Shown piece after piece: positions 7,711 to 63,957 of a DNA stretch of 64,000 bases. The stretch is taken from the IMG/VR virus record IMGVR_UViG_3300025679_000005; one strand, given 5' to 3'. Both the position numbers and the translations under genes were made by a program. Numbering within the stretch: position 1 is the stretch's first letter; every line of letters starts with the position of its first letter. A model generated the notes under the pieces. The model saw nothing but the letters and a program-made list of their open reading frames with translations. It did no database searches and had not been told where the DNA came from. This stretch comes from a virus. Taxonomy: Duplodnaviria > Caudoviricetes.

Positions 7711-8352
7711 ATGGTCGAAATCAAAAGCAAAATGTACAACATCGAGATGCGAGGCCGCTTGGCCTGCTTCACAGCCGTCGAATCGAAGATCGAGCGGGTC
7801 TCGTACCCCATCCCCACCCCCTCAGCAGTAGAGGGCGCCTTGAGTGGCGTCATGGGGAAGCACGAGATCCAATGGCACTTGTCCCAGTGCCGCGTGCTCT
7901 CCAAGATCAGGCATACGCCCGTTCGTCGCAATGAGCTGAAGGAGTTCGGCAACAATCCTGTCTACATTGAGAACAACCGCGCCCAACGCACCACCCTGTA
8001 CCTGAAGGACGTGCACTACGTGTTCTCGGTCTTCATGACGATTCGGCCCGATGCCTTCACCAGGGACATCGTCAAGTACGAGTCCATGTTCGAACGTCGC
8101 ATGGAAGGCGGGCAGTTCGAATACTACCCGTATTTCGGCTTACGGGAACTCGCGGTCAGTCGTTACGCTTTGGTGGACGACCTGAGCCAGTTCACGCCTA
8201 TCCCGTTCTCACAGAACTTCGGTCGGATGTTCTACGGCCACCAGTATCGTGATCGTCGAGTCGTTTCCAGTAAGTTCTGGGAAGCCAAAATCGTCAGAGG
8301 CATCGTCAACTACCCATCGCGAGATGAGATCTTCGGAGAAATTGAAACATGA
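7711..8352 (+). CDS. cas5: Type I-C Cas5 (Cas5d)
   Basis: GRLACFT..ESKIERVSYPIPTPSAVEG, VRRNE, LYLKDVHY, PYFGLRE motifs typical of Cas5d. Confidence 0.93.
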   Translation: MVEIKSKMYNIEMRGRLACFTAVESKIERVSYPIPTPSAVEGALSGVMGKHEIQWHLSQCRVLSKIRHTPVRRNELKEFGNNPVYIENNRAQRTTLYLKDVHYVFSVFMTIRPDAFTRDIVKYESMFERRMEGGQFEYYPYFGLRELAVSRYALVDDLSQFTPIPFSQNFGRMFYGHQYRDRRVVSSKFWEAKIVRGIVNYPSRDEIFGEIET

Positions 8353-10154: not shown

Positions 10155-11131
10155 TCGACTCTCAAAACACAAATAGGAACAAAATGGCACCGAAAAAAGC
10201 TACTGCTGCTGCAATTCTCGAAACCCCGTCCAACACAGCTGTCGAGAAATCCCACTCCGACACCGTGGTCGATCGTCGCATCGACATCTTCATCGTGTGG
10301 GACATCACCGCAGGGTCTCCTCAAGGGGATCCTGCTCAACTCAACAACCGTCCTCGTGAGGACATCGACACCGGCAACGGCATGTTCACGGATGCTGGCT
10401 GGAAACGCCACATCCGTGACTACATCATGATGGCCTACGAGGGCAAGGAAGGTCTGGACATCCACATCCGTCAGAAAGCGATCTTGTCAGAGGGCGTTCT
10501 CGATGCCCAAACCAAGCTCGGGATCAAGCCCGCGGATGCCCAGAAAGACGCAAATCAAACTCGTGTCCGCGACGCCATGTGCAAAAGCTACTTCGATGTC
10601 CGAGCATTCGGCGAAGTTGTAGCCCACAGCACCGCCACCAACTCCGGCAAGATCACTGGCCCTGTCCAGTTCACGCACTTCTGGAGCCAAGATCCCTTGG
10701 ACACCATGGAGATCAAGGGGACCCGCGTGGCGGTCGCCAACCAAGAGCGCTCGGACAGCATGGCCGGGTTCAACCAGGACTTCAGCATCAAGTACGTGGT
10801 CCCGTACGCCCTGTTCCACGGAAACGGCTTCGTGTCCCCCTTCTGGGCCAAGAAGACGGGATTCACCTGGGGCGACTACGAAGTGCTGATCGAAGCCATG
10901 AAGAACCTGTTCGAGAATCGTCGAACATCTTCGAGCGGGCTTCGGACTACCCGAAAGATCATCGCTTTCGAGCACAGCACCCACTTGGGCTGCGCTCCGG
11001 CGGCCGATCTCTTCGATCTGGTCAAGATCGTCAAGAAGAACCCCGACAAGCCGGCTCGTGCCTACTCGGATTACGAGATCACGATCGACGAGGCGAATCT
11101 GCCTGCCGGTGTAACCGTCAAGGTGTACTGA
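10151..11131 (+). CDS. cas7: Type I-C Cas7 (Csd2); probable start ATG 10184
   Basis: GSPQGDP...NRPR..D...G.FTD..WKRHIRDY, FDVRAFG, ITGPVQF, KYVVPYALF motifs. Confidence 0.95.
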   Translation: MIDSQNTNRNKMAPKKATAAAILETPSNTAVEKSHSDTVVDRRIDIFIVWDITAGSPQGDPAQLNNRPREDIDTGNGMFTDAGWKRHIRDYIMMAYEGKEGLDIHIRQKAILSEGVLDAQTKLGIKPADAQKDANQTRVRDAMCKSYFDVRAFGEVVAHSTATNSGKITGPVQFTHFWSQDPLDTMEIKGTRVAVANQERSDSMAGFNQDFSIKYVVPYALFHGNGFVSPFWAKKTGFTWGDYEVLIEAMKNLFENRRTSSSGLRTTRKIIAFEHSTHLGCAPAADLFDLVKIVKKNPDKPARAYSDYEITIDEANLPAGVTVKVY

Positions 11132-11209: not shown

Positions 11210-13588
11210 ATGACTCGCTGTCTACCGTCTCGACACCAGCCCTCCGTGGGTGCGGTGCCTTTTTGTCTGCATACTCGATACTATCAGCCAGATGTCTTCA
11301 AGGAGCTGACAGAGCTAGTGCCCTCAGAGCCACAGGTGGCATTGCTGTTGCCTACAGGCAGCGGTAAGACAACGCTGATTCTGTCTTTCATCGCCTGGGT
11401 GTTCGAGCAGCCAAAGCCACCTTTCTCCGAAGTCTACGTCATCGCCCCTCAGAAGACCGTCCGCGATGGCTTCAAAGGCAATAAGGGGGAGAACCGTCAA
11501 TTCCAAGTCAATCCAGGAGAGGCCTGCTATGAGCTTGTGTCCGCAGAGGATCTGGATTCGAGGACTTCTCTGGACGAAACGGGGGATCTCGATACCAAGC
11601 TTTTAGAAGTGCCCAAACCTGGAACAAAAGTGTGGTTCGCAGAGACTCATGCCAAATTCGCACTTGAGAAGCTGCTCTGCAACTTGCAGAACCACTGCTG
11701 TACTGCTGACTTCCACGGCAAGCTATTGGTGGTGGATGAGGGGCACCACGCCAAGCTGGGCAACAACATCCGAGCCTTCATCGACTATTGGGTGGCCAAT
11801 GGTGGGCACGTACTGTACGCCACTGCCACTCCGGGAGACGGTATCCCTGAGACCGCCAAACTGATCCAACGCACTCTCACTGAGCTAATGGCGCCGCCAT
11901 ACGACCTCCCGCCGTGTGCCCCCACAAGGATCCTATCTAATTTCATCGATACGGGGTTGGCGGAGGACTCCGAGCAAGACGCTGATGGGACTCATTGTGC
12001 TCCTATCGGGACTGAGGCCGAGTTGCGCAATGTCTTCGAGGACATGGCCACTCGCTGGAATGACGCTGGTCGTCCCAAGACTATTGTCCGGATCAAGCCT
12101 AAGCAAGACACTCAGCACAACATCAAAATGCTTCTTATGGCCAAAAAAGCCTTTGAGGACGTAGGTGCGAGAGCTTTTGCCGTCAGAGCTGATGTCAACT
12201 TGAAAACAGGATCCGAAATCAAACGCATTGACGGCTTGATTTCCTCCGAGGACCTCTCAGAAAAGCTGGCTAAGGAGCGCCGTCGGTCGTATTCAGAATC
12301 CGAGTGCGACGTGATCATCACGCTCAACACAATGATTGAAGGTGCCGATTGGCCCCTTTGCAGTCATGTCTACTTGTGGGGCGTGCCCGGCAACTGTCAG
12401 ACCACTGTTCAGGTACTGGGGCGAGCCACTCGTCTAAGGACCGGTATCTCAGACTACCCGCAGCAATGGTGCGAGACCACTCAGATCGTGTTCTTTGTGG
12501 GTGGTGTCTCTGATCTTCGTAATACCCACGGCACTACCATGCTTTTGGTAGGGTGCTCACTAGCTAACTACACTCTAGGTGCTCAATGGTCTACGTTCCG
12601 AGAGCATTTGAAGCTGGTCAAGGAACACCCACAGATCTTGGAACCAGCTCGTGAAGAGGCAACGGCGGTCCCCGCGGAACGTGAGAGAGAGATCAGACTG
12701 GGTATTTCGGGGCTGTCAAAAACCATTGAAAAGTTCCAAAATACCAAGGAAAGGGTGGAGAACTCCGAAGTTCACGAGAGGCGCAAACGGATAATCGAGA
12801 AGCATCTGTCCACTCTTCCAGACGGACCCGAGCGCCGATTTGGCATAAGCTTTGCCCTAGGGGAGTATCCTGGGTATCAAGAGAAATACCGCAAAGCATT
12901 GAGGGGACGCCTTCAAACGGAGAGCTTCAGCGAGGCCCATAAGGCTGTCCTGGATGAACTCCTGGAGCACTTCCTGAACTCAACTGAGGTGCTCCCTAGA
13001 GCGGGGTCCCTAATGGACCTGGAGGATATGGGACTACTCCAGTTGACTGCCCCTGTTCTTGAGGGATTGAAGGACAAGATGCTTAAGGAGTGTCCTCCTA
13101 GGTTGTACCGGAGTAAAGTCATTAACAACACTCAGAGCTTCGTTATCTCGAATCCACACCTGTCCATTTCAGAATTGCTGGATCAACCGGACCCCGCAAG
13201 CCCTGACGGGTACACCTTCAGGGCATACGACGAGGCCATTCGAGCTGGCTCACGTGGCCTGGAGAGGCACGATGACGGCCTAGGCGGTATGGTCTGTGAG
13301 CGAAGCTCGTGGTCCAAGGAATGGGTGACATCAGCTCATCTGGACCAGCTAAAGGGTGGGACTAGTCAAAAGAGGTTCGCTTCAGAGTTTAAGAAACACC
13401 CTTTGGGGTTCTTTTTCGGGCCTCCTATCACCAATCTCCTGAAGGGTCTACCCTTGGATGTCTGTGCCCGTCTGACTGTCGGCGAAGCGGTCCGCATTGG
13501 TCGTTCAGAATGGACTAAGGAGCAATACGCCTCCTTTAAGGGCCGTCTTCAGCACATGACTGTGCAGGAGGCGCTAGATGGCGTCTAA
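11210..13588 (+). CDS. SF2 helicase associated with type I Cascade genes; no HD nuclease domain
   Basis: Motifs I LPTGSGKT, Ia APQK, II DEGHH, III ATATP, V EGADWP, VI QVLGRATR; motif I at about residue 46 leaves no room for an N-terminal HD domain. Confidence 0.85.
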   Translation: MTRCLPSRHQPSVGAVPFCLHTRYYQPDVFKELTELVPSEPQVALLLPTGSGKTTLILSFIAWVFEQPKPPFSEVYVIAPQKTVRDGFKGNKGENRQFQVNPGEACYELVSAEDLDSRTSLDETGDLDTKLLEVPKPGTKVWFAETHAKFALEKLLCNLQNHCCTADFHGKLLVVDEGHHAKLGNNIRAFIDYWVANGGHVLYATATPGDGIPETAKLIQRTLTELMAPPYDLPPCAPTRILSNFIDTGLAEDSEQDADGTHCAPIGTEAELRNVFEDMATRWNDAGRPKTIVRIKPKQDTQHNIKMLLMAKKAFEDVGARAFAVRADVNLKTGSEIKRIDGLISSEDLSEKLAKERRRSYSESECDVIITLNTMIEGADWPLCSHVYLWGVPGNCQTTVQVLGRATRLRTGISDYPQQWCETTQIVFFVGGVSDLRNTHGTTMLLVGCSLANYTLGAQWSTFREHLKLVKEHPQILEPAREEATAVPAEREREIRLGISGLSKTIEKFQNTKERVENSEVHERRKRIIEKHLSTLPDGPERRFGISFALGEYPGYQEKYRKALRGRLQTESFSEAHKAVLDELLEHFLNSTEVLPRAGSLMDLEDMGLLQLTAPVLEGLKDKMLKECPPRLYRSKVINNTQSFVISNPHLSISELLDQPDPASPDGYTFRAYDEAIRAGSRGLERHDDGLGGMVCERSSWSKEWVTSAHLDQLKGGTSQKRFASEFKKHPLGFFFGPPITNLLKGLPLDVCARLTVGEAVRIGRSEWTKEQYASFKGRLQHMTVQEALDGV

Positions 13589-19726: not shown

Positions 19727-21148
19727 TCAGGGAGTCGTATCTTCGGCGTTTGAGGCTGTGCCAGTACTCTTTGCAGAGATTGCCCTGGTAGTAAGCCTAC
19801 GGCTAGAAGCTGCTAGCTCGGTAGTAGACCTTCCTGAGGAACTGTCCCCGGCCCGAAGGGCTAGGTATCGCTGACTCAGGAGGGTTTTCACTTCGGAGGG
19901 ATGATCATAGATCCCAATCTCTTTGTCCTCGGAACGTCCGAGCAGATTGCGACCTCCTACCACATCCGCATGAGAAATCCTGCCGCACCCACGGCATTGA
20001 AACTTGATCCCACTTCTGTTGGATCGTGAAACGTAGCCACAGGATGGGCACATCTGAGAAGTGTATGCCGGATTCACAACAATGACCGGAGCCTTGGTGG
20101 CTAACGACTTGTGCAGAGCCTTATAAGCGAATCGCTTTTGCCCCTTACAACCCCTGAGATCCAAGTCCTCGATGACGAACGCATGTCCTGGGTAGTCTCT
20201 AACGAGCGAGTTGGCAACGAACCCTGTGCTTGTTTTGATGAGACCGCTGAGGTGCTCTTCCAAGCGATCTAGGCGAGGAGAATTGATCCTCAATCCCTGA
20301 CGTTGCCTATTGGCTCTGAGGGTTTTGACCTTGGCATAAAGGGTATCGAACTTGGGCTTCAGATCAGCTCCGTAGATTCGACCGGCCGACGTAGCCGCGA
20401 TCACGTTGAGGCCGACATCCACTCCTACGCGAGGTGCTGACAGGTCAAGCTTAGGCTCCTCAATTAGCTTCTTCTCAAGGACTTCGACTCGCCATCGGCC
20501 CCGGCGGTCTTTGCGGATCATACAGCCATTGACGATCTCGTCAGGGGATTTGACGTGAGGGTTGGCGACGATCGGGACTTGGATCCTACGACCCTTCTTG
20601 AGATTGGAGAAGCCCAGCCACCAGGCACTGATTTTGGTATCATCGATCTTGCGGATGGCACTAGTATGCACCGAAAGGCGTATTCCAATTCGATCAGAGA
20701 TCGTGGGGGTCTTACCTACTAGGTCCTTGTCAAGAAGGAACGACCAGTACTGATCGAGAACTTCCTGAGAGATCAGGTCAGTGGCATGGTCGTAACTGTA
20801 TTTTCCGATAGTGAGAAGGGCGATTTTGGTCGATTCGGTGATCAAGCCCTCCTTAGCCAATCCCTTGATGTGTCGCTTGAGCTTCCTGACGTAGGTGGTT
20901 GTAACCCAAGCTGAAACAATCTCGATGGCATGCTGCTGGCAAGCCATTACAATGTTAGTGGAAAGAACCCTCTCCCTGGGAAAGAACCTGAGAAGTTCTC
21001 CTCTAGGAATCCCCATCCTCATGGACGAGATCATAGCTTCGACGCAAGCCTGGAGATACAGAAGGTATTCTACGTGAAGGGCTTCGAGCGCACGGATCTT
21101 CCCTGGGTTTGCTTGGGGGTGAAAGAAAAGGACTCGTGAGCGTTTCAC
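19727..21148 (-). mobile_element. tnpB: TnpB (RNA-guided RuvC nuclease), no tnpA
   Basis: VGVDVG (RuvC I), FVIEDL (II), VNPAYTSQMCPSCG...CRGCG...ADVVGGRNL (Zn finger + III); right-end hairpin GATACGACTC/GAGTTGTATC at the 3' end. Confidence 0.9.
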
Positions 21149-22307: not shown

Positions 22308-25300
22308 TCAGTCATCATCATTGATCAGAGCCCACAGCTGCCGACCAATGCTCATCCCCGACAGATGTTGGCTCCCCACACCCGCCGAGGCCAGCATGCT
22401 CTCATTGTCGAGCCCGTCAGTCGATATCGAGATCTCGACTTTACGCATGAGCAACTCGTACATCTGCTCTTGTAGGGTGTCCTTGAAGACAGCGAAGTGG
22501 ATGCGGGTGTCCTTCTTCTGACCAATACGGTCTACTCGACCGACTGCCTGCCGGAACATGATCGGGCTACACATCGGGTTCTCCATCCACAATTCTGTGG
22601 AGAAGTGGACCAACGAATTCAAACCCGTGCTCACGGAGGCGGGGTTGACAATCAATACCCGGGAATTCTTCTTGACTACGTGCTGCTCTATCCACGTTTG
22701 GCGCTTACTCGTGGGGACGCGGTCAGCATAAAGGATCGGGGCCTTCACCCCTAGGCGCTCCTCAATGAGGCGGGCAATCCTAGGAAGCAACGTCGTGTGC
22801 CAAGCAAAGACCATGGCATTGCGACCCTCGGCCAGTTCCGCCTTGAGGGTGTCGAGCATCCACTGCTCCTTGGCAGAGACCTCGGAAGCTGAGAACTGCT
22901 TACCAGTCGCCACGATCCCAGCGCCCACGGACTCGGGATACCGGATCTCGTAGGTCCCGTCATCGTTATTGCCAGTGTCCGCCGTTGATCGATCCAAGTA
23001 GCTGGGCAGCTCTGACAGCTGGCCGAACAGCTTCCCCGACAGGTCCGGATCGAAGCGATCCTTCTTGATCTGATCCCTCAATGAGGCCAGAAGGGATTTG
23101 TAGCTGCCCAGTAGCTCGGAATCAGCTTCCACCACATGCTTCGTGACAGTGCAGGGCGGGATGTCAATGGCTAGGTCTGCCTTGTGCAAGGTCACAGACA
23201 CGGGCAGGAGGTGCCGGAACAAGAACAGGGGGAGAATGCCAGGGGCATCTCCGGCTGTGCGTTCGCTTCGCTGCACACGATCGGACATGGCCCCGAAGGC
23301 TACGACCTCCCCAGACTCCTTATCCTTGTCAGAAATGATTCGCTTCCGGTAGCCGTAGCGGTCAATGAACCGTTGGGCATCTTCCCTGGCGAACTCATGC
23401 CGGAAGTCCGGAGACAGCGCCCACATGTTCGTGTACAAGGACTTCGCGTAGCCGTTCATGACAGAGCCGGTCATGAACAGGGTGGGGATACCAAGGCCGG
23501 TTAGAGAATGGTAGGCTTGCGATTGAGCTGAGTCCGCATTAGCTGCCTCATGGCTTTCGTCTAAGCATATGAAGTCAAACAGATTCGGAGAGTATTTGGC
23601 GATGTGCTTCGCCAACGCCACTCGACGGGGTTCGGGTACCGCCTGGAACAAAGCCTCTCCGCATTCTGGGGTCAAGTAGATCTTACCACAAGCAATAAGC
23701 CCCGTAAGGATGGCCTCAGCAAGGTCTAGACTGTTGGCCTCCTTGGCATCTAGGGTCAAAACCCCGTCAGTCCACTTGAGCATCCCCAAATGGGTGTTGT
23801 GACCGTAGGACCTGGCCGCCTTGTAGTACATGTCCCAGCTCTGCCAATTGCTGGTCTCAAATAGTCCGGTCAGCTCCTTTTGGAGTTCCGTTCCCTCTTC
23901 AAGCAGGTAAACCAGGTTCTTCGCCATGTCCTTGATGTAGTATTCCTGGTGTTGGGACAGGATCCGAACATAGCGAGCAATTCGAGCAGGGTCGTAGGCG
24001 GCCATCAACAGCTTGGCGAACAGCTTGGGCAGCTCACCTTCGTTGGTCGAGTTGAGCATCATCTTGGCGAACACGAGATCGGTCATGTGCTCGACGTTGG
24101 CTGGCTGGAACACCCACTCGGGGCGTTCGTCTTTCGGAACCAGTGCGTTCTTGTCGAGGATCCTGTTCAAGTGCACCGTCCTCAGAATGCCCCGAAGGCG
24201 ATGACTCTCAGGGAGGTGCTCTAGAAGCTGCAAGCCGAACGAGTAGGCGGCTAGGCCCAGATCATCCTTGATCGAAATGTCTCTGTTCTCGCAACGAAGG
24301 CGCTTCTTGACGGCATCTTCCTTGGGCAGCTCACCGCCACACTTCGGGCAGCTCTTGGTAACGGCTTCCCAGCCATGGCCTAGCTTGGCCGTTTCCCGGG
24401 ACAGAATCGCCACCAGAAAGCGTTCCGCTGGAATGTCAGCCAATGCCTCGATGTCTCCAATGTCCTTCAAGACCCGCACCTCAGCGTCAGGAAACGTGGC
24501 CGAGGTCTCATTGGTCCAAGAGGTCAGAAGATGAGGCGGGCAAAGGACAAGCATTCTCTTGGCGATTGTCCTAGCGACCGTTAGTGCCAGGCAGCTCTTA
24601 CCACTGCCGATTTCGCCCAAAAGCTGGGCAGATCGATACTTTCTGTCCTTGGCCTTGTTCCCACCCAAAAGCATCACCAACGCCTTGGCTGAGTGCTCCT
24701 GAGCTTTGAAGAGTTTTCTCGCCGTTGGGGCCAAGGTCACCGAGTCCGCATCCCGCTTGGGATCGTACATGACAGGGCACTGTTGCTGCATAACCCCCAT
24801 GAGGCTAGGCCCGTAGTGCTTGAGCAAGTCCTCAATGGTCATTTTCTCGACATCGAGGACTTTCGACTCCCCACCGGATCCCAGGGTCGTGTACTTTTTG
24901 GTACTCAAGTCCAAGATCGTCGTAATCAGCTTCGGCTGCTGAACCTGAACAACCGAGGTCACATCCCCGTCCTTGTTTTTCTTCTCCTCGACGGTGACGA
25001 ACTCCCGATCGAACACTCCCTTGACCAAGAGGTCGGGGAGGCCTTCGGTTTCTGAAGATACCCGGCGACCATTGAACAGCCCTGAGGCGATCCCCGCGGC
25101 AATGTGGGCGGGCCTAGGGGGCGTAGCCAACTTGTACGTCCGGAACATCAGCTCTTCTACGGGAAGCTCAGGGATGATGTGAGGCACCGGGACGTAAGAG
25201 CCCAGGCGATTGCTTTGGGTCCAAGGACGAACCTTCTTCAATAGCCCAATGCGGTCGAAGGCCCGCATGCCCCAATCGGTCGTGTAGACGTTGCTCTGCG

Positions 25301-30462: not shown

Positions 30463-31677
30463 TCATAAAGACACCCATTCTTCTCTGGACTTCGGCTGAG
30501 AACCTACCTGCCGTAAGGCCTGTAGGTTCTCGTTGACCGCGCTCAAACCGAGCGCTTTAATGTTACACCCCGCATTCTGGTCACGATCCATGACGAGACC
30601 ACACTCGGGGCAATTGTGGATGCGGAACCGTAGTCCCTTGGGGACGACGGTTCCGCACGCATGACACCTCTGTGTAGTTCCTCGTGGATCAACTCCTACC
30701 GCTAACTTACCAGCTTCTTCCGCTTTGCATTTTAGGCAGTGGATTGTAATTGACCAGGACGCATCCGAGATTGATTTCGCTAGATTGATCTTCGGCTTCC
30801 CATCTCTGGAAGGACCTCTGGAAGGACCTGAGATCATCTCCTGAATCGAGAGGTCCTCGTAACAGACGATGTCATTCGTTTCAAAGAGGGACTTAGCCAG
30901 CTTCCTAGCGTGATCTAGCCTCTGATTCTTGATGTGAGCGTGAGCCCGCTGGACTAGGGTCTTGGCCCGTCTCCTAGAGGAGCTGCCACGGCGCTTGCGT
31001 TGCATAGCGCGTTGGCGTTGGGCCAAAAGGTCTTGCCCCGCCTTGAAATAACGAGGATTCTCGATCGTTGTTCCGTCATCAAGGGTACCGAAGTGGGTGA
31101 GTCCTAGGTCAATGCCGACGGACTTCGTGGGGTCGATCACGACCTCAGGGGCTACTCCCAAATCGCACTGGAAGATCACAAACCATTTACCGGCTTCTCT
31201 TCTAACTGAGACATCAAGGATCTCTCCTTTATGGGGCCGATATTGGTTGAATTTGACTAGGCCTAGCTTGGGGATCTTGACTCTGGCAGAGGAAACCCTC
31301 TTGATCTTAGGCTCAATTTTCGTAGTAGTCTGAAGAGCAAACGAGTCGTAGCGCTTGTAGCTACGGAACCGCGGGAAGCCAGGGGCTTCGCCCGTCTTCA
31401 CGCGGCGGAAGAATGCCTTGAAGGCATCGTCTAATCGCTTGAGCGGAGATCGAAGGATCGTGGCTGGGATCGCTTCGAAGTCAGGGTCTTGAGATCGAAT
31501 GATGGTCAGGGACTTCTGTTGATCATAGAGAGTCAGACTCTTTTTGAACTTTAGGTAGTGACTTTTCCGCTCTTCCAGGGCGCCGTTGTAGAGGCTATTG
31601 CACATGAAGAGCCAGTTGGCCATTCTGGCCTCCTGGTCCTTCGTGGGATACAGCGGATAACGAAAAGAGCGAATCAT
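30463..31677 (-). mobile_element. tnpB: IS200/IS605-family TnpB, no tnpA
   Basis: N-terminal FRYPLYPTKDQ HTH, SVGIDLGL, CYEDLSI, VDPRGTTQRCHACG...CPECG...DRDQNAG; hairpin TTTCATGGGC/GCCCATGAAA (31703-31735) upstream. Confidence 0.93.
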
Positions 31678-33533: not shown

Positions 33534-33862
33534 GTCTCAGTACTGGAACCCCTGAGCGGGTGTTGTTGGAAGGGCTATGGACCAAGTACGTGCTCACAAA
33601 GGTCTCGTCTCAGTACTGGAACCCCTGAGCGGGTGTTGTTGGGGGTTCGCGTGCGGTAAATCCCCTAATGTCCGAGAAGTCTCAGTACTGGAACCCCTGA
33701 GCGGGTGTTGTTGGCCCTGTTACGTCGAGCAGCTCCACCTCGTCGAACAGCAGTCTCAGTACTGGAACCCCTGAGCGGGTGTTGTTGGCAAGGACCGACA
33801 CGCAAACGAGATCGATTCCGTACCCAGTCTCAGTACTGGAACCCCTGAGCGGGTGTTGTTGG
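33534..33862 (-). CRISPR. CRISPR array 3, 5 repeats and 4 spacers, type V-like
   Basis: Repeat CCAACAACACCCGCTCAGGGGTTCCAGTACTGAGAC (minus), CTCAG/CTGAG stem, GAGAC 3' end; spacers 36-38 nt. Confidence 0.97.
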
Positions 33863-39377: not shown

Positions 39378-40148
39378 GTCTCAGCGTACTGAGCAATCAA
39401 AAGGCTTCGCAGGCTGGGTCTGTCGCGAGCTGGACCAATACGGTGACGTGCTTGTCTCAGCGAACTGAGCAATCAAAAGGTTTCGCAGGATCCAGAGCTA
39501 CCAGGCGCTACAACGGAAGTGGCATCAGTCTCAGCGTACTGAGCAATCAAAAGGTTTCGCAGGAGGCGGTAGTCCTTGATGCTATCGTCGGCAAAGTCTC
39601 GTCTCAGCGTACTGAGCAATCAAAAGGTTTCGCAGGGTCGGGGCGGCGGGGGCAGATTCATCAGACCAAGTACGTCTCAGCGTACTGAGCAATCAAAAGG
39701 TTTCGCAGGAGTGGCCCATAGACCTGGTTCCCTTGGGCGTCCCTCTTGTCTCAGCGTACTGAGCAATCAAAAGGTTTCGCAGGGCCAGGGGCCGGCGGGC
39801 CGTTGTACTGGCCCGGACGAGTCTCAGCGTACTGAGCAATCAAAAGGTTTCGCAGGTTCCTTAGTGGGACTCTTAGAGGATCCTATAAGTAAGAGTCTCA
39901 GCGTACTGAGCAATCAAAAGGTTTCGCAGGGTCGGGTGTTGGAGTCGATGAGGTTGGCTTAGCGTACGTCTCAGCGTACTGAGCAATCAAAAGGTTTCGC
40001 AGGCCCCGACTCCACGGGATCATGTTGGGGATCGATCCTGTCTCAGCGTACTGAGCAATCAAAAGGTTTCGCAGGGCGTCGTGTTCATCGATCACAACTA
40101 CAGGGATCCCCTGTCTCAGCGTACTGAGCAATCAAAAGGTTTCGCAGG
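39378..40148 (-). CRISPR. CasPhi array, 11 repeats and 10 spacers
   Basis: Repeat CCTGCGAAACCTTTTGATTGCTCAGTACGCTGAGAC; 3' end matches the CasPhi repeat family; directly downstream of casPhi. Confidence 0.98.
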
Positions 40149-40239
40149 TCGCACGTCAGAAACAGTGAATTTTCAAAGACCTACCGAATGCTTTGCGAGC
40201 GGTTCGGTAAATTAGAGATCAGCAGGGGGTATTACACCG

Positions 40240-42570
40240 TCATTCAGCGGCTTCAGCATCTTCTTCTGGCTTAAAAGCAGCTTTGCGAGCGCCTACGCTC
40301 TTTTTGGCATCACCGGACCGCTCGCTTTCTGGCTTAGGCATAGGCTTGCCGGTCAGAGCGACTCGTTCAATGTTGTCCGTCGCGATCTCAAGGTCAGCAT
40401 GAGCTACAAAGCCGCACTTCTGGCATGCGAACCGTTCTCCGTCCCGATTGGCCTTGTCACAGTGCCCACATTTGGTACAGGTGATGCTGGTCCGGTGGGG
40501 GGTTACTTCAATGGTTGGGACCCCCTTGTGGGCCCCCAATTCGGTCAAGGACTTGTGGAAGGCTTGCATGAACCAACGATTCTCCCTCTTCTTGATGAAG
40601 AAAGCGTCCCATCCGCCATCAGCCCATTTTCCGTTCCCATGCATCATCTTGATATTGAGGTCTTCGAAGGCCATAACGACGACCTCACATTGAGAGGATT
40701 TTGCTGCCTTGTGTCGCAATTGATTGAGAATGCGCTTCGTCAGTTCTTGTTTCCAGGTTGAGAGTCGGAGGTACTCGGGAGAAGTCCTCTGAAGGTCCCA
40801 TTGTGCCTCCCGATATGCTTCGGCAGCCTCCGGACTCACTTCTATTCGAACACCCTCAGTTCCCTTGAATTTGATGTCTCGTCGCAACATCTCGGGCCTA
40901 TTTTTGGGTTTGAGGGTAGCTACTTTCCGGTCGCCGCCCTTCTCAAGATAGGCCGTAGCAAGGAATTCTGTGTATGGAGTCATCTTGTCCCAAGCGATCA
41001 TCTCCGGATTGAGCCCTAGTGCGGCGCACACCCTAGCCTTACAGAGAGCTGGGGTGTCGTTTTTAGCCCTTAGGATCTCTGACTTATGCTCTGGAGATAG
41101 TCGCTCAACAGCCAAATTGGCCAACTTGTCCCGTAGACGATCACTGGCCACTCGATATCTAGCGATCTCTTTCCCATCGCTGCTGTCATTCGACAGTAGC
41201 TCTCGCAATAATGTCTCGTGGGATAGCTGGCCGTCGCTCAATTGGGTTACCCTAGAGACTTTGGCGGCAATAGGATTGGTTTGACCCAGGTCAATTGATA
41301 CTAGAACCACAGGCCCCGATTTTGTCAACTCGGACAGGATTTCAGGAGCGTTCTTTGTCTTCACCATTTTGGCAGAGCAAGCTTGACCCGCCTTGTAGAT
41401 AAAAGTGCAGACGCCCTGCCGCATGTCGATAGAGGGGTCCCCCGTGAACAGGCTTAGCAAGTCAGGGATCGTGGACTTTTCCTTCAGCAATTTCCGATAG
41501 CGAGCATTTCGCAGCAACCCTCGAATATCGATGATGACCCATTCGTCTTGGAAGCGCATCAATACAGGGATCGCACCTTTGAAGCGCCCCGATTGGATCT
41601 GATCTGTTCTCGAATTCTTCCGGTTTGGTGTTCCGGACCGTTTGGAGCACGTAGCCTTAGGCTTGTTAAGACTTGCCGAGTACCAATCTCGACGGCGCCT
41701 GTTCTTGCGACGATTGAGCAGAGGATGCTGCCACTCGGGCACATACCCCGGCTGTCCCTTTGGAATGGTCATGCGATCGTGAGGCAAGTAGTCCGTGAGG
41801 GCCTCAGCGGACTCTTTGGCAAGGCATCCGCTAGGTAACCCAATAAAGTCACTAGGGCAGGATTTGATCACTACTGCCTGATAGCCTGGAATCGTTTGGT
41901 TCACTCCCGGAGGATGAATCAAGTATCCTCGTTCATCATGGGCTTTCTCCTCCACGAAGGTAGCCTCTTCTCCTGCTTCCTTCCGGCGCTTCGTCTTCGA
42001 CAGATTCTTCTCGTTGCGGTTCTCAACCTTTTTGAGTACGCCCTCTCGAATGCTGATAGCCGATTTGATGAGGGCGTTCTGTGCCTGAGCGTGGAGGCTA
42101 GGGGCGTCCAGTCCCAACACTTCATAGAAGGCAGCTCGGGTTTCCTCATTGAGCTTGGATTTGCCATCAACTTCTAGGGAGGCTACCGCTTCGTTGAAGG
42201 CCGTCTCTGACAGACCATCTTGTTTGGGACGACCCTTGGTAGCGGGGATCCCGAAGATCTTCTCCTGGATTTGACGAGAAACTCGAACGAGGTCCCATTC
42301 GATAAAGGGCCTGCTTTGAGCAATTACGAAGGCTTTGGCGGGCGGTTTAACGTCCTTGAGCTTTGCCTGACCCTTGCCAGTCAGGTAGCTGATGACGGCT
42401 TCGGGTCCGCCATCTCTCAGCTTCTTGCCAGCAATCTTGTAATCCTGGGACTCAAATTTCAAGCCTGGGAAATGCGCCCGCAAAAGCAAAGACAATGGAG
42501 AAGGGGGTGTGGTTTTATTGCTCATGTGCTCTCTGGTCGAAACGGCCGTATTTGACATTTCTATTTGCAA
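40240..42570 (-). CDS. cas12j: CasPhi (Cas12j) type V effector; start probably ATG 42558 or the next Met
   Basis: HFPG, IDIRGLLRNARYR, FTGDP, VSIDLGQTNPI (RuvC I), AFEDLN (II), KKRENRWF, HRTSITCTKCGHC...CQKCG...ADLEIA (III): recognisable CasPhi signatures. Confidence 0.96.
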   Translation of the reverse strand: MQIEMSNTAVSTREHMSNKTTPPSPLSLLLRAHFPGLKFESQDYKIAGKKLRDGGPEAVISYLTGKGQAKLKDVKPPAKAFVIAQSRPFIEWDLVRVSRQIQEKIFGIPATKGRPKQDGLSETAFNEAVASLEVDGKSKLNEETRAAFYEVLGLDAPSLHAQAQNALIKSAISIREGVLKKVENRNEKNLSKTKRRKEAGEEATFVEEKAHDERGYLIHPPGVNQTIPGYQAVVIKSCPSDFIGLPSGCLAKESAEALTDYLPHDRMTIPKGQPGYVPEWQHPLLNRRKNRRRRDWYSASLNKPKATCSKRSGTPNRKNSRTDQIQSGRFKGAIPVLMRFQDEWVIIDIRGLLRNARYRKLLKEKSTIPDLLSLFTGDPSIDMRQGVCTFIYKAGQACSAKMVKTKNAPEILSELTKSGPVVLVSIDLGQTNPIAAKVSRVTQLSDGQLSHETLLRELLSNDSSDGKEIARYRVASDRLRDKLANLAVERLSPEHKSEILRAKNDTPALCKARVCAALGLNPEMIAWDKMTPYTEFLATAYLEKGGDRKVATLKPKNRPEMLRRDIKFKGTEGVRIEVSPEAAEAYREAQWDLQRTSPEYLRLSTWKQELTKRILNQLRHKAAKSSQCEVVVMAFEDLNIKMMHGNGKWADGGWDAFFIKKRENRWFMQAFHKSLTELGAHKGVPTIEVTPHRTSITCTKCGHCDKANRDGERFACQKCGFVAHADLEIATDNIERVALTGKPMPKPESERSGDAKKSVGARKAAFKPEEDAEAAE

Positions 42571-50054: not shown

Positions 50055-50400
50055 CTAGGGCGACCCATTTGGGAAAGCGGCCCCTTGCTTGAAAGACGGA
50101 CAATTCGTCGAATTTGTACACGCCTTCGAAGCCGATGATGAAGGCACAGGCTTCAGCTTCTTCGCAGTTTAGGAGGTCTGCCGCCTCTGGGGGCGTTGGA
50201 TAGTAGTTGGCCGTTCGACCTGAGAGCATGCTTTCAACTGCCCCAAGGGGACAGCACGTGTGCCCCTTCTTTTTGAAGATAGCGCCGATGGCGTCCTGGA
50301 CCCCCATCTTCTGGACGTTGATTGCGTAAGTCACCGAATCCGCGATCTTGGAGGCCGCTCGGCGGTAGCGTTGTTCAGGGGTCTCAATTGTCATGTTCAT
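50017..50400 (-). CDS. Hypothetical protein, paralog of 53650-53967
   Basis: CCPLGAV...EAEACAFIIGFEG...LGEAYRKRF. Confidence 0.7.
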   Translation of the reverse strand: MNMTIETPEQRYRRAASKIADSVTYAINVQKMGVQDAIGAIFKKKGHTCCPLGAVESMLSGRTANYYPTPPEAADLLNCEEAEACAFIIGFEGVYKFDELSVFQARGRFPKWVALGEAYRKRFVATP

Positions 50401-50825
50401 TGTCCAGGGTTAGAGGCCACTGGCTTCGACTTGTAGGGGTTTGCGATACCGGACGTGTCTTCCTCTAGTTCGATGTGATCAGGCGTCACAGCGTGGCTAG
50501 TGGGGGTAACCACTGGTTTTACACCAGCGACAGGTCGTTGCTGAACCACCACCGGCTTGACGCCCGCGTCAAGGAGAGTCTCGACGGCTACGACCTTAGG
50601 GGCGTCATTGACTTGAGCCGCCTGCCAGCGCTTCACCACTGCCATCGCCTCGGCATCAACCGTCGGTACCGGCATTACAATGACAGTGGACGAGGCCGTT
50701 GGCGCCGTTACGGCTACAGGTTTCGGCTGGCTAGAGCTGCCGAACATGTAGCCACCCACGAAAATGGCGATGGCGAACACGAAGGTGAGAACGATATAGG
50801 GGGCGTCTTGGCGAGTCATGATCAA
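50397..50825 (-). CDS. Membrane-anchored Pro/Thr/Val-rich protein (target of a self spacer)
   Basis: N-terminal TM helix IVLTFVFAIAIFVGG; low-complexity stalk. Confidence 0.7.
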   Translation of the reverse strand: MIMTRQDAPYIVLTFVFAIAIFVGGYMFGSSSQPKPVAVTAPTASSTVIVMPVPTVDAEAMAVVKRWQAAQVNDAPKVVAVETLLDAGVKPVVVQQRPVAGVKPVVTPTSHAVTPDHIELEEDTSGIANPYKSKPVASNPGQ

Positions 50826-50874
50826 TAGAACGGATCCATAACCCAGAAGTTAAGGGCTACCTGGTTTCCGGCCC

Positions 50875-51351
50875 GTGACCACTTGAAAGGGTTTCGTCTC
50901 CCTCTCTGACCTCAGCGCCCTCCCACGAGTCACGTTCCGCGTGGAGTGACCACTTGAAAGGGTTTCGTCTCCCTCTCTGACCAAAGCTAAGTCCACCAAG
51001 GACCCCAAGAACATGTTCGTGACCACTTGAAAGGGTTTCGTCTCCCTCTCTGACGAGCGAATGCGTCCCCCTGCCTCTCGTGAGCAATTCACGTGACCAC
51101 TTGAAAGGGTTTCGTCTCCCTCTCTGACTCTCTTAGGGATTTGATCCCTGATTCGCGATTTTGCGTGACCACTTGAAAGGGTTTCGTCTCCCTCTCTGAC
51201 CTCGGCATCAACCGTCGGTACCGGCATTACAATGACAGTAGTGACCACTTGAAAGGGTTTCGTCTCCCTCTCTGACACCAAGGTTTCGGTTCTCAGCTAC
51301 CCACCTGGAGCCCTCGTGACCACTTGAAAGGGTTTCGTCTCCCTCTCTGAC
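50875..51351 (-). CRISPR. Orphan CRISPR array 4, 7 repeats and 6 spacers
   Basis: Repeat GTCAGAGAGGGAGACGAAACCCTTTCAAGTGGTCAC (minus); spacers 35-40 nt; GAGAGGG/CCCUUUC stem (G-U wobble) and promoter at 51467 favour minus orientation; no adjacent cas. Confidence 0.95.
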
Positions 51352-51460
51352 GCGGTCCGTCAGGTTAGCGGCAATGAGGGTGTGGGAGGCTACGTAGTAT
51401 ACAGCCCCGTTGGTGGCTTTGACTTCGAAGGCTCTGAGGGCGGGGACGGTCGGCATGGTC

Positions 51461-52267
51461 TCAGTCTACACCAAAAACCTGGTAGTTCAGGTAGAACCCC
51501 TCGTAGGTGTAGAACTTCAGCAACCGCTCGACACGGATCGTCCGGTCATTGTCCGTGAGTACGTAGCAATCGTCTTCGTGGACTGCCACGATGACTACGG
51601 CACTGCTCCGACGCCTGTCCTTGGTCCGCCAGCGCTGGCCCTTCGCTGGCCCTGGGATCTGACCGCCAATAGGAGCGGATATGAAAATGATCTCGGGATC
51701 ACAATCGACTTTTGGTTCAGGCGGCTTGGGGTCCGGAACGATCCTTGATCCCGAGGTCGGTTCAGATCCCCCAGCACTCTTAGGGTATGCCTCATGGTAC
51801 AGTTCACCTAGGCCGATCGTCAAACGATCCATCAGGTGAGAAGCTTTGAGTTTCGCGCTATCTACGAGGATTTGCAGTATCGCGCTATCTACGAGGATTT
51901 GCAGTATCATACGTGCTCCAACGGTCAATTTCTGATGGGTCTTAAGGGTCGGCCAACGTCTTTCGACGCAGTACCGGCAGAGGCAGCAGCTGCCGTCGCA
52001 TTCGACCTTCCCACAAGTCTCACAGGGGTCAGGCGGGATCGGACAGTCTTCGCAAAAGACAATGCAGCCAGCCAATGTCGAGGCTGTTCTTGATGCCCAA
52101 GCATTCGGGACAGGATTCGTTTTCGTTGTCGAAGGTGTATAGGCCGCCGTCACAGCGATAAACGCCGTCTGGGAGGGGCACAGGCTCGGTGTAACCCCAT
52201 CCGACGTAGTGAGCAGCCCCAGTGCACCGAAGGGTAACGTAGGGCTGGGAGCTGTAGTCACAGCCAT
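51461..52267 (-). CDS. Hypothetical protein (frame and start uncertain)
   Basis: ORF track; overlapped by an alternative ORF 52029-52289; contains a 27-nt tandem duplication. Confidence 0.45.
   Translation of the reverse strand: MAVTTAPSPTLPFGALGLLTTSDGVTPSLCPSQTAFIAVTAAYTPSTTKTNPVPNAWASRTASTLAGCIVFCEDCPIPPDPCETCGKVECDGSCCLCRYCVERRWPTLKTHQKLTVGARMILQILVDSAILQILVDSAKLKASHLMDRLTIGLGELYHEAYPKSAGGSEPTSGSRIVPDPKPPEPKVDCDPEIIFISAPIGGQIPGPAKGQRWRTKDRRRSSAVVIVAVHEDDCYVLTDNDRTIRVERLLKFYTYEGFYLNYQVFGVD
51854..51907. repeat. 27-nt tandem duplication
   Basis: CGCGCTATCTACGAGGATTTGCAGTAT x2, in frame. Confidence 0.9.
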
Positions 52268-62200: not shown

Positions 62201-63957
62201 GCTACGTTCCGGAAGACGACCGTCGCAGCGTTCCCAAGGCGGAGCGAACCGACTCTGGCTGGCGTTGCTCCTAGCGACAACGCTCCTGTAGTTACTAGAT
62301 TCTGAGGAGAGAAGTTGTCGCCCGGCTGCCACGACGTGCCGTCCCAGATGAGCGCTTGTCCTAGTGTGGCTCCGTCCTGAAGTAGGCCTCCTAGTGGAAT
62401 TTGACCATAGACCAGAGAGGACGTGTCAGAGAGGAGGACGAAAGAACAGTTGGAATTAGGATACGAGATAGGTACTTGGGAATAGTTTACGTTATTCCCT
62501 GCCATCACAATCTGCTGAGTCGCAGGGATCGCTAGATGGGCTTCCGTATCGGTAACGGCGTTCGCTCCACCGCTGAGGGCGAAGCCTACTGCATAGCTGG
62601 TGCCGAAGCCATATTGCTGGCCAGAGACCTTTATATAACAATCGGGAGCTACAGATACAGCGGTTCCAGACCCGTTGGTCCATTCACAGGCCGCAAAGTC
62701 TATACTCCCCGCAAATTCACTGCCACCGCCCGCGGCTCCCCCACTAAGAGCGTTTCCACCATTGGCAAAGCAATTGCCAATGAACATCTGTATTGGTATA
62801 CCTGCGATCAGGGAAGCCCCGTCAACGAGGCAGCCCATGATCACGGACTCAATCGATCCTAGAAACGCCGTGGTTCCGGCGCCAATGATCCTGCAATTTC
62901 GGAGCTGGGTGCTGCCAGCGAAGCGAGAGACGTTGACGCCTCCCACCAAACATCCTGTTATGTAGTTGCTGTCGGATCCGGCAACGGTATTTAAGAACTC
63001 GGCCCCGTTTGGTAAAATCGCATCCCGAAGAACGAAGTTATCTCCAGACGGACCGCCGTTGGGATGGCCCGGCAGCCTTATTTGGACTCGTGCAATCGTC
63101 ACTCCCAAGGTGTCGACCACTACGGTAGTCCCTGAGGCTATGTTGACGACGTTGACCGTGGCCCCCGAGTCCAAAAACCAGGTCTTAACGTAAGCGTCCG
63201 TTGACCCGCCATTGAGGGCAGTGACGTAGGTGATCGCCCCGACGTTGGCACCGGAGGTAGACCTAATACGGTTACCGGCTGCAAAAGTTCCGGAAACCGT
63301 CGTGATCTCACCCCTCGTAGGAGTCGCCGACTCAACGGTGTTGACCACCGTTGCCAAAGGGATCGGGCTCGAACTCGTGAAGGCGCAAAAGATGTCAAAC
63401 CCCAAGTTACTGCCCACCGGAGCGGATATGCTTAGTTCAATGGCGCCATAGGACCCAGCCGCAATGTGGACGGCTGTGCTCTGATGGATAGTGAGGGTTG
63501 TCCCCAGCGGGCAAAGAGTTTGAGATAGCTTCTCAGTCGTCGCAAACGCTGTCCCCGAAGTATGGCCATCGTTGGCATCGGAACCGGTCGAAGCATTAAC
63601 ATACCAGTTGGGGACCTTTGCTACGGCCTCGCTGAACATCAGCGTATAGGGATCGATATTGTAGAAGCCAGGGGTGTTATCGAGAGCAAAGGAAGTCCCG
63701 GAATTCGGAAGATTGAACGGGATCGCTGAGTACGGAAACCTATGTCCGTCGGCAACAATTTGAACGGTTGCCGGTATGTTTTGGAGGGACGAGACTAGTC
63801 CGTACATCGTGGCATTGCTGCCGGCCTCAAGCTCGATTCCAATCCCGTACGGAGTCGACAACCCCCAGATATTAGAGAGCAGGTACAGAGCACAGGTTGG
63901 GGCGACTTCAATAGCAGTTAGTCCTGAACTGCCATTCTCGATCTCAAGGACCCCCAA
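59263..63957 (-). CDS. Large Gly-rich virion fibre/structural-like protein (1564 aa)
   Basis: G/S/T/A-rich; duplicated module (LANLNT...GTILYVDPADHKAKIREQSGLVT); short collagen-like GPAGPPGPAG; Gly-rich C-terminus. Confidence 0.7.
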   Translation of the reverse strand: MGVLEIENGSSGLTAIEVAPTCALYLLSNIWGLSTPYGIGIELEAGSNATMYGLVSSLQNIPATVQIVADGHRFPYSAIPFNLPNSGTSFALDNTPGFYNIDPYTLMFSEAVAKVPNWYVNASTGSDANDGHTSGTAFATTEKLSQTLCPLGTTLTIHQSTAVHIAAGSYGAIELSISAPVGSNLGFDIFCAFTSSSPIPLATVVNTVESATPTRGEITTVSGTFAAGNRIRSTSGANVGAITYVTALNGGSTDAYVKTWFLDSGATVNVVNIASGTTVVVDTLGVTIARVQIRLPGHPNGGPSGDNFVLRDAILPNGAEFLNTVAGSDSNYITGCLVGGVNVSRFAGSTQLRNCRIIGAGTTAFLGSIESVIMGCLVDGASLIAGIPIQMFIGNCFANGGNALSGGAAGGGSEFAGSIDFAACEWTNGSGTAVSVAPDCYIKVSGQQYGFGTSYAVGFALSGGANAVTDTEAHLAIPATQQIVMAGNNVNYSQVPISYPNSNCSFVLLSDTSSLVYGQIPLGGLLQDGATLGQALIWDGTSWQPGDNFSPQNLVTTGALSLGATPARVGSLRLGNAATVVFRNVANTGDVPTLFVGGGSVILNSEVANNGVQLWGGGAPVFSVGNSGTQVVMALVSATGAQSIMQFADASSAGNCTLQIHATSSATGRALSIVAQGAITTGGALYLASGLGLTQGRVAIQMGGFVNGQVSGVGYQMIELANLNTTASPAGVLSLCFNGVLSTTQMPTNTGDGVIYLREAGTIPSANPSGGTILYVDPADHKAKIREQSGLVTILDLAGAPYAAGTLGQALIWNGTTYAPGDNFAAQNLVTTGSLSLGTNPSATGTLRLGNASTINFRNAANTGDFTGVAINGTGGIQLRGETIVGGFALGGGASDIITCNISGTIGNLVFNEVVANQRTVIGALGTSNLRSMSFWIGATGNSTGAPLFLNGQNANVTGGDVGVVSGNSGTTGPQGRVYLQMGGLSTGIVSGTPARLVELANLNTSASPAAVLALCYNASLSTTQMPPNTGNGVIYIAEAGTIPSANPSGGTILYVDPADHKAKIREQSGLVTVLDAAGGTGPAGPPGPAGGVSGIRTVPTGSPNYTLQLSDANGIILCTWSPDTVIQIPLNSAVNFPVPARIEIVQTDDDHPVLIQPLSTVTLITSAGITTSASTVGLAGTNSKLVIEQIVTDVWRIVDNDAEHVNPLRSMCCGYGFDGDLTVTNTIVTLTSDMYYRNLTMGVNGYIKPNGYRIFVQGTLDISNAEPEAFFVVANAGANASGSVGGGGGAGSSDGTIAGSLVGYDGPNAFGGFPALGGEPGTSIVAIKVCQGGPSGPGGDGGAGDNVGGSGGIGTTTDLTVSYHRWACDFFGAIRVAPSNASGYGFLTAGAPGSSGGTGGNDTGNTSTAGAAGGGGAGGGFGYISCYRVVTGTARTSAIFQAKGGAGGVGGFAPNGQLSTFVGGGGGGSGGGGGWWFFSYFVKSGATITGAFDVTGGAAGAGGNGLISQSGGGGSAGGGGRVILVDMGSNLAMELGPGTYNAGGPAGASAGAGGVPTNWVRDL

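Follow-up and report, generated by a model that had tools for sequence, protein, structure and literature searches.

The window analysed here, a 64,000-nt stretch of DNA from a virus of the Caudoviricetes (IMG/VR record IMGVR_UViG_3300025679_000005), contains a CRISPR array (array D; 50875–51351) that is read on the minus strand and consists of seven repeats and six spacers. The repeats are identical 36-nt sequences (starting on the plus strand at 50875, 50946, 51019, 51093, 51165, 51241 and 51316) with a spacing of 71–76 nt—none would be expected in the shuffled window—and the six spacers are all unique and 35–40 nt long. This is the arrangement by which CRISPR arrays are recognized (at least three near-identical direct repeats of 23–55 nt, separated by unique spacers of similar length). 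The array lies within a string of co-directional genes, which makes read-through transcription plausible, and the start codon of the gene that follows it is found 56 nt after the last repeat. A 49-nt trailer (50826–50874, minus strand) separates the last repeat from the longest open frame of that gene, and no terminator-like site was detected between the array and the gene. The upstream flank (51352–51492, minus strand) carries a terminator-like hairpin just before the array (51492–51477) and a 35-codon open frame with an ATG at 51456 that extends into the first repeat; promoter calling gave no sigma-70-like site in this flank. Rfam and tRNA scans of the window were blank. The gene caller of an outside assembly had placed two 'genes' across the repeats (50850–51248 and 51208–51456, minus strand; 132 and 82 aa). 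Both calls pass through CRISPR repeats and are artefacts; the 35 codons of the 82-aa call that precede the first repeat look real and may be what is left of a gene that the array interrupts. A 27-bp tandem duplication in perfect frame (51849–51902; ILQILVDSA twice) was observed in the open frame 51461–52267. In run X3, from another peat study, a contig at 2x depth shows a 72-nt joint that goes back within the array (51092–51163), and this may represent a duplicated repeat–spacer unit in a related population.

The gene downstream of the array (50397–50819, minus strand; ATG at 50819, stop at 50397) has a frame of 140 codons. GC content by codon position (0.65/0.45/0.64) is like that of the annotated genes of the window, residues 9–27 form a strongly hydrophobic segment and the frame was called as a gene in the outside assembly, which together suggest that it is a real gene. 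Its product is predicted to be a single-pass membrane protein with a Pro/Val/Ala-rich tail. No Pfam families were found in this protein or in those of its neighbours, and a search of 5.8 billion protein clusters returned no homologue besides the protein itself.

One spacer of the array matches this gene. As had been noticed from the sequence alone, the spacer at 51201–51240 (minus strand; guide starting at 51240) is identical to 50649–50687 at 39 of 39 nucleotides, and only the terminal base differs (A at 51240 versus G at 50688, plus strand); the chance expectation of a 39-mer match in 64 kb is about 1e-14. Shifted by one position, 51200–51239 and 50648–50687 agree at 40 of 40 nucleotides (the last repeat base and 39 spacer bases). 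The first base after the repeat varies among spacers and among the arrays of the effector family described below, and the mismatched base therefore belongs to the spacer rather than to the repeat. The protospacer (50649–50688, minus strand) covers codons 44–57 of the target gene (STVIVMPVPTVDAE) and starts 187 nt past the last, trailer-side repeat of array D.

The self-match is not an artefact of assembly. In peat metagenome run X1, in which the phage is present at about 93x, one contig leads from unique flanking sequence into the protospacer (50300–50677, depth 93), the junction of repeat and spacer is carried by a unitig of its own (51173–51229, depth 100), and the contigs break exactly where the word graph is expected to break at a 39-nt duplicate. 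An ENA contig of 464,302 bp (record k141_731965) is identical to the window over 20,423 bases that span both copies, and the target protein is also present on a second contig of 465,854 bp. Given that the repeat–spacer junction is found at full depth (100 versus about 93), the self-matching spacer is fixed in the sampled population rather than being a rare variant under purge.

Two X1 contigs (13.5 and 3.7 kb; depth 95 and 88, respectively) end in the array D repeat and lead from it into sequence outside the window, so that a second locus with an identical repeat must exist. We read the 464-kb contig k141_731965 gene by gene, covering 147 kb of the phage, and located this second locus (L033) outside the window. 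It consists of a gene for a 649-aa TnpB-family nuclease (L033:10366–12315), a 292-nt non-coding stretch and then a mini-array of three repeats on the strand of the effector (12608, 12685 and 12762), which are identical at 36 of 36 positions to the reverse complement of the window repeat. Both loose ends of the X1 contigs match the flanks of the mini-array exactly. The X1 depth of the word made of the repeat plus C/CT is 505, which fits 6 + 4 copies at about 95x; array D and the mini-array probably account for all of the repeat-word depth, with no further arrays of this kind. On the coordinates of the record, the mini-array lies at approximately 116.4–116.6 kb and array D at 242.6–243.1 kb, a distance of 126 kb, and both arrays and the effector gene are on one common strand. 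With six spacers, array D holds three times as many as the effector-linked, primary array. Array D is a satellite array of the 649-aa TnpB-family effector: an orphan array would have no cognate effector in the genome that carries it, and here the effector is found 126 kb away on the same contig. Only the spacer described above, one of eight in the two arrays (six in array D and two in the mini-array), matches the phage itself, the other seven having no match in the 147 kb of phage genome read.

The 649-aa protein scores 175 bits against the NCBIfam model guided_TnpB (cut-off 100) and falls far under the cut-offs of the Cas12f2 and c2c8 models. Alignment to ISDra2 TnpB structures places the RuvC motifs GIDLG, VEDL and RDANAAMN in register, and nuclease activity is predicted from this intact triad. 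Within the non-coding stretch lies an anti-repeat, the duplex of which with nucleotides 1–32 of the repeat has an energy of −41.5 kcal/mol, compared with −25.0 ± 3.0 kcal/mol (best, −34.7 kcal/mol) for 300 shuffles. No anti-repeat was found within the window, where the best complement (17 of 19 nt at 62425–62443, E = 0.3) was taken as chance. L033 thus brings together the features that mark tracrRNA-dependent type V systems, namely a RuvC effector, an adjoining array on the same strand and an anti-repeat between the two, and the cognate system is predicted from these features to be of a compact, DNA-targeting type V kind (TnpB-derived, with a tracrRNA-type anti-repeat). Neither cas1 nor cas2 was seen in the 147 kb of phage genome read, and the genes called in these 147 kb of the 464-kb contig include no cas10 or RT-cas1.

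An exhaustive profile search with the effector returned a small family of seven proteins at E ≤ 1e-30; no close relatives were found in IMG/VR. We inspected the genes around two of these relatives, those closest to the query in sequence identity (48% and 43%). Both have, in this order, the effector, a structured scaffold region, a leader motif (GACC.TCTCGCAAA) and a mini-array of two repeats. The repeats of both relatives are unlike the phage repeat in their 5′ half and have the 3′ end GTCAC in common with it. The strand of the effector-linked mini-array and this shared GTCAC handle indicate that array D is read on the minus strand, and the presence of the effector-family 3′ handle on array D indicates that the guide lies 3′ of each repeat, which is also the arrangement in the tracrRNA-dependent type V nucleases Cas12b, Cas12e and Cas12f. 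The array D repeat ends in AAGTGGTCAC, as opposed to the ...GAAAC-type tag of type III. In three kinds of array, a leader motif (..CTCGCAAAGCAT..) precedes the first repeat by 40–57 nt, with sites at 40188–40200 (beside the putative CasΦ array of the window), L033:12540–12570 (mini-array of the 649-aa effector), and L041:5846–5870 and approximately L042:2565–2590 (mini-arrays of the two distant relatives). This leader element is common to unrelated type V systems and is missing from array D, the upstream flank of which does not contain the motif of the effector-linked mini-array and its relatives (..TCTCGCAAAGCAT..). A BLAST search of 401 Chloroflexota genomes with the leader and repeat of the mini-array gave only chance-level matches.

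Orientation determines what the guide can pair with. The sequence-only reading had favoured transcription of the array from the minus strand, and the effector-linked mini-array and the GTCAC handle bear this out; the opposite reading, in which a plus-strand transcript would be antisense to the target mRNA and could silence it, is contradicted by the same array and by the repeat ends of the two relatives. In the minus-strand reading, the self-matching spacer comes second among the six when counted from the upstream, presumed leader side, which agrees with its earlier designation as the second-newest, and its guide is, as had also been proposed, sense to the target mRNA. A guide of the same sense as the mRNA cannot pair with it, and its pairing partner is the template (plus) DNA strand. 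The sole mismatch falls on guide position 1, the PAM-proximal end (T in the guide, C in the gene), which adjoins the repeat and hence the place where a 5′ PAM or TAM would be expected. This base (50688) occupies the third position of codon 44, where guide and gene differ synonymously (TCT in the guide versus TCC in the gene; both Ser). Immediately before the mismatched base, the 5′ flank of the protospacer on the non-target (minus) strand reads ...CCTCGTC.

Searches for the repeat elsewhere were largely negative. Neither the full array D repeat nor its 22-nt core has a match in IMG/VR or in 185,579 GTDB species genomes. A loop-free repeat pattern found nothing in JGI metagenomes, blastn of array D against phage and plasmid collections found nothing and the 4-kb region around the array has no phage relative in these searches. 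A tandem 11-mer scan with the other end of the repeat gave chance loci only. The first 11 nt of the repeat, GTCAGAGAGGG, are common to arrays in metagenome-assembled genomes (MAGs) of Bryobacteraceae, Caldilineaceae and Bacteroidia (L014:2576–3934, L016:774–951, L010/L020 and L017), the repeats of which are otherwise unrelated to that of the phage; the Caldilineaceae repeat has about 21 nt in common with the start of the phage repeat, and the array in a peat Bryobacteraceae MAG adjoins an RT–Cas1 fusion. Sharing with bacterial arrays is thus confined to the first 11–21 nt, and no candidate-host array with a matching repeat was found. The phage repeat may be a chimaera of a host-like 5′ end and the 3′ handle of the effector family, perhaps one that borrows a host integrase. 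Scans with other spacers found no protospacers in viral contigs (D1, D5, M2 and D6), metagenomes (D5) or genomes (D4); partial matches of M1 in three bacterial genomes fall in unrelated genes and were attributed to chance. These scans yielded no PAM.

The phage carries several further RNA-guided loci. Pfam searches identified Cas5, Cas8c/Csd1 and Cas7 at 7711–11131, followed by a ResIII/helicase protein (11210–13588), and an array of approximately 75–80 repeats that end in ATTGAAAC lies beside these type I-C-like cas genes (about 1959–7555). A 776-aa protein with a Cas12f-like TNB domain (40240–42570), a putative CasΦ, adjoins an array of 11 repeats (39378–40148), and a further array of five repeats is found at 33534–33862. 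The repeats of these three arrays bear no resemblance to that of array D. We considered CasΦ and the type I-C-like system as users of array D and rejected both, given that their repeats and handles differ. The phage therefore carries three CRISPR systems: the type I-C-like system, CasΦ and the 649-aa TnpB-family effector with its two arrays. One spacer of the type I-C-like array (2285–2320) is near-identical to the phage's own sequence at 24426–24461 (30 of 36 nt), within its 1226-aa methyltransferase/helicase gene. The last 23 nt of this match are contiguous, all six mismatches fall in the PAM-proximal 13 nt—possibly as the result of two compensating indels—and the 5′ flank is TTC, the canonical type I-C PAM. 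Besides CasΦ and the 649-aa effector, at least five further TnpB-family genes (372–476 aa) were observed in the 147 kb read (19727–21148 and 30463–31677 in the window; L024:1426–2607, L029:3933–5363 and L031:6964–8082), and the load of RNA-guided nuclease genes is unusually high for a single phage.

These results alter the picture that the sequence-only reading had drawn of array D. The array had been described as an orphan, which is refuted by the phage effector and its identical-repeat mini-array 126 kb away on the same strand. Use of host Cas proteins, then considered probable, finds no support beside a phage-encoded 649-aa nuclease with an anti-repeat and an identical repeat. The window does lack the cognate effector gene, as stated, while containing a type I-C-like operon and a CasΦ gene. 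The proposals of harmlessness to an RNA-targeting system and of RNA-derived acquisition have lost their basis, given a cognate system of a DNA-targeting type V kind; the applicable branch is the one in which the spacer was called potentially lethal or repressive for a DNA-targeting system, and such an effect is for now a prediction.

The explanation that we favour, with about even confidence, is that the spacer is self-derived, was captured beside the array and is tolerated by the phage. Array D is, in this view, a second array at a distance from the compact type V-like system that the phage encodes, and the self-matching spacer would have been copied from phage DNA starting 187 nt past the trailer end of the array. 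DNA adjacent to the array may act as a capture hotspot; phage DNA also dominates in an infected cell and would be the most abundant substrate for whatever integrase fills these arrays, neither cas1 nor cas2 having been seen in the 147 kb read. With this guide, a DNA nuclease would be led to the template strand of the gene for the 140-aa membrane protein, and survival of the phage would imply that the site is not cut efficiently: the flank ..CTCGTC may not be the PAM of the effector, the mismatch at guide position 1 may block R-loop initiation or the leaderless array may be poorly expressed. The route of capture and the reason for tolerance are what we infer, whereas the repeat identity with the effector-linked mini-array, the catalytic residues of the effector, the anti-repeat pairing, the orientation and the position of the mismatch are shown. 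That one of eight spacers matches the phage fits an accident better than a programme, and a 39-nt match in the middle of a gene is unlike known regulatory guides, which supports a tolerated, self-derived spacer. Several observations sit uneasily with tolerance, however. The catalytic residues of the effector appear intact and all seven repeats equal those of the primary array, so the guide should be loadable; a single mismatch at position 1 may not protect fully; and the spacer is present at full depth in the population. Moreover, pure accident would be unlikely to place the target less than 200 nt from the array in a 464-kb genome, or the sole mismatch at the most PAM-proximal base and in a synonymous position.

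Fixation at full depth would also fit programmed self-regulation, an explanation that we regard as unlikely. The guide-loaded effector would bind the template strand and, owing to a poor PAM or the position-1 mismatch, not cut it, forming a roadblock to transcription that runs from the array and the upstream operon into the 140-aa gene and its downstream neighbours. Template-strand pairing is the orientation in which nuclease-dead Cas12a represses best in coding regions (PMC5460296), and the array and the gene run in the same direction, separated by 56 nt in which no terminator-like site was detected. The RuvC triad, however, is intact, the target lies mid-gene rather than in a promoter and the match is 39 nt long, whereas the regulatory guides known so far escape cleavage because they match over a short or partial stretch. 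Alternatively, the array might be a silent relic—displaced, leaderless and neither transcribed nor processed, so that the self-match would be neutral. We think this improbable. The leader motif shared by the primary mini-array, the two relatives and the CasΦ array is missing from array D, promoter calling gave no sigma-70-like site in its flank and a terminator-like hairpin precedes the array closely, all of which speaks for a relic. On the other side, the seven repeats show no decay, being the same throughout array D and in the primary array, array D has three times as many spacers as the primary array, and the co-directional gene string makes read-through transcription likely.

The position and synonymous nature of the mismatch raise the question of whether the guide is aimed at relatives. 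It could be a weapon against sibling phages, acting by allele exclusion or homing on close relatives that have a proper PAM or whose allele has the T of guide position 1 and so matches the spacer perfectly, while the synonymous C would shield the carrier; a cut 190 nt from the array would eliminate the sibling, or its repair would copy the array-linked region. We rate this quite unlikely. The target is tightly linked to the array, as in marker exclusion by homing endonucleases, and the near-self spacer of the type I-C-like array, with its correct TTC and six PAM-proximal mismatches, shows the pattern expected from diverged relatives; phage arrays are known to target competing phages (PMC7162821). 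The T allele, in contrast, was seen in no sequence; a relative in soil run X2 (depth 2, which makes for thin evidence) has the phage's own base at 50688, and the target protein has no homologue and hence there is no sibling genome for comparison. It is a long shot that spacer and synonymous position-1 base together form a guided device for allele exclusion or homing, in which the mini nuclease would cut the gene of the sibling while the carrier is immune. Were this true, recombinational repair would spread the array-linked region in the manner of a homing endonuclease, but guided by RNA from a phage-borne CRISPR array. Least probable of all, and by our estimate highly improbable, is that array D is an orphan used by host Cas proteins, possibly an RNA-targeting system (type III, RT–Cas1), in which an mRNA-derived spacer would be harmless. 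Such use would agree with the 11 nt (in one case 21 nt) at the start of the repeat that recur in bacterial arrays, including one beside an RT–Cas1 fusion, and with the finding of no adaptation genes in the 147 kb of phage genome read. The phage nevertheless has a cognate effector, an anti-repeat and an identical repeat; the 3′ end of the repeat is the GTCAC handle of the effector family and not the ...GAAAC tag of type III or type I; and searches of 185,579 species genomes, IMG/VR and JGI metagenomes did not find the full repeat. The effector locus with its identical repeat largely refutes an RNA-targeting host system as the user of array D.

Here a virus with three CRISPR systems of its own holds a self-spacer, fixed in its sampled population, alongside an apparently intact nuclease. 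The phage carries a guide against itself that it must somehow tolerate or use. The locus offers a test bed—one effector, one tracrRNA, one guide and a native target with a single PAM-proximal mismatch—and can show how miniature phage nucleases discriminate self from non-self and how arrays are filled without adaptation genes. It also affects annotation, in that an array of a huge phage can look 'orphan' while its effector is encoded over 100 kb from it.

Guides against the carrier's own DNA are known from CreR/CreA, the Cas9 tracr-L and scaRNA, which use short or partial matches to promoters and bind without cleavage. The spacer of array D is alike in being a repeat-flanked guide aimed at the DNA of its carrier. 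It differs in that the match is 39 nt long and mid-gene (codons 44–57) and not a short or partial match to a promoter or 5′ region, and in that the array is a regular, multi-spacer array of seven repeats, not a degenerate mini-array. In cells, self-targeting spacers are usually put down to accident or taken to signal an inhibitor or a broken system. They are well known from prokaryotic arrays and have been reviewed; survival is held to imply a defective PAM, target, array or effector, an inhibitor or a non-immune role (PMC6990116). The present spacer resembles these in matching the genome of its own carrier, but the carrier is a phage, the effector is TnpB-derived and encoded 126 kb away and the target is 187 nt from the array.

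Capture of self DNA beside an array also has precedent. In naive adaptation in Pyrococcus furiosus, protospacer hotspots are found around CRISPR arrays and have been ascribed to nicking during integration, and array-proximal hotspots in the type I-E system of Escherichia coli are cited in the same work (PMC5737086; the E. coli case as cited there). In those settings, self spacers are drawn preferentially from DNA around an active array, as is proposed for array D; the cells of that study had their own Cas1–Cas2, whereas here there is a single fixed spacer and no cas1 or cas2 in 147 kb. Miniature tracrRNA-dependent type V systems derived from TnpB include Cas12f, Cas12n/Cas-λ and TranC-type intermediates (PMC10691335). 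The system described here is alike in its single RuvC effector of TnpB ancestry, its anti-repeat, its short array and a guide 3′ of the repeat; it differs in that the effector fits only the general TnpB model and has a distal, leaderless array attached.

The closest setting is that of huge phages, for which Al-Shayeb et al. 2020 describe a variant type I-C system in which a helicase replaces Cas3, together with CasΦ and no cas1 or cas2, and report spacers against hosts and competing phages (PMC7162821). The phage analysed here shares the type of genome, the CRISPR make-up, the compact arrays and, in the parts of its genome read, the lack of acquisition genes. It adds a third system, which is tracrRNA-dependent and has two arrays, and a spacer directed at the gene next to the array, of a kind not described in the passages of that work consulted here. 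What is new here is the link between array D and the effector at L033, and the combination is unusual: a virus as the carrier, an array 126 kb from its effector and a guide directed at a gene 187 nt away, with a synonymous, PAM-proximal mismatch.
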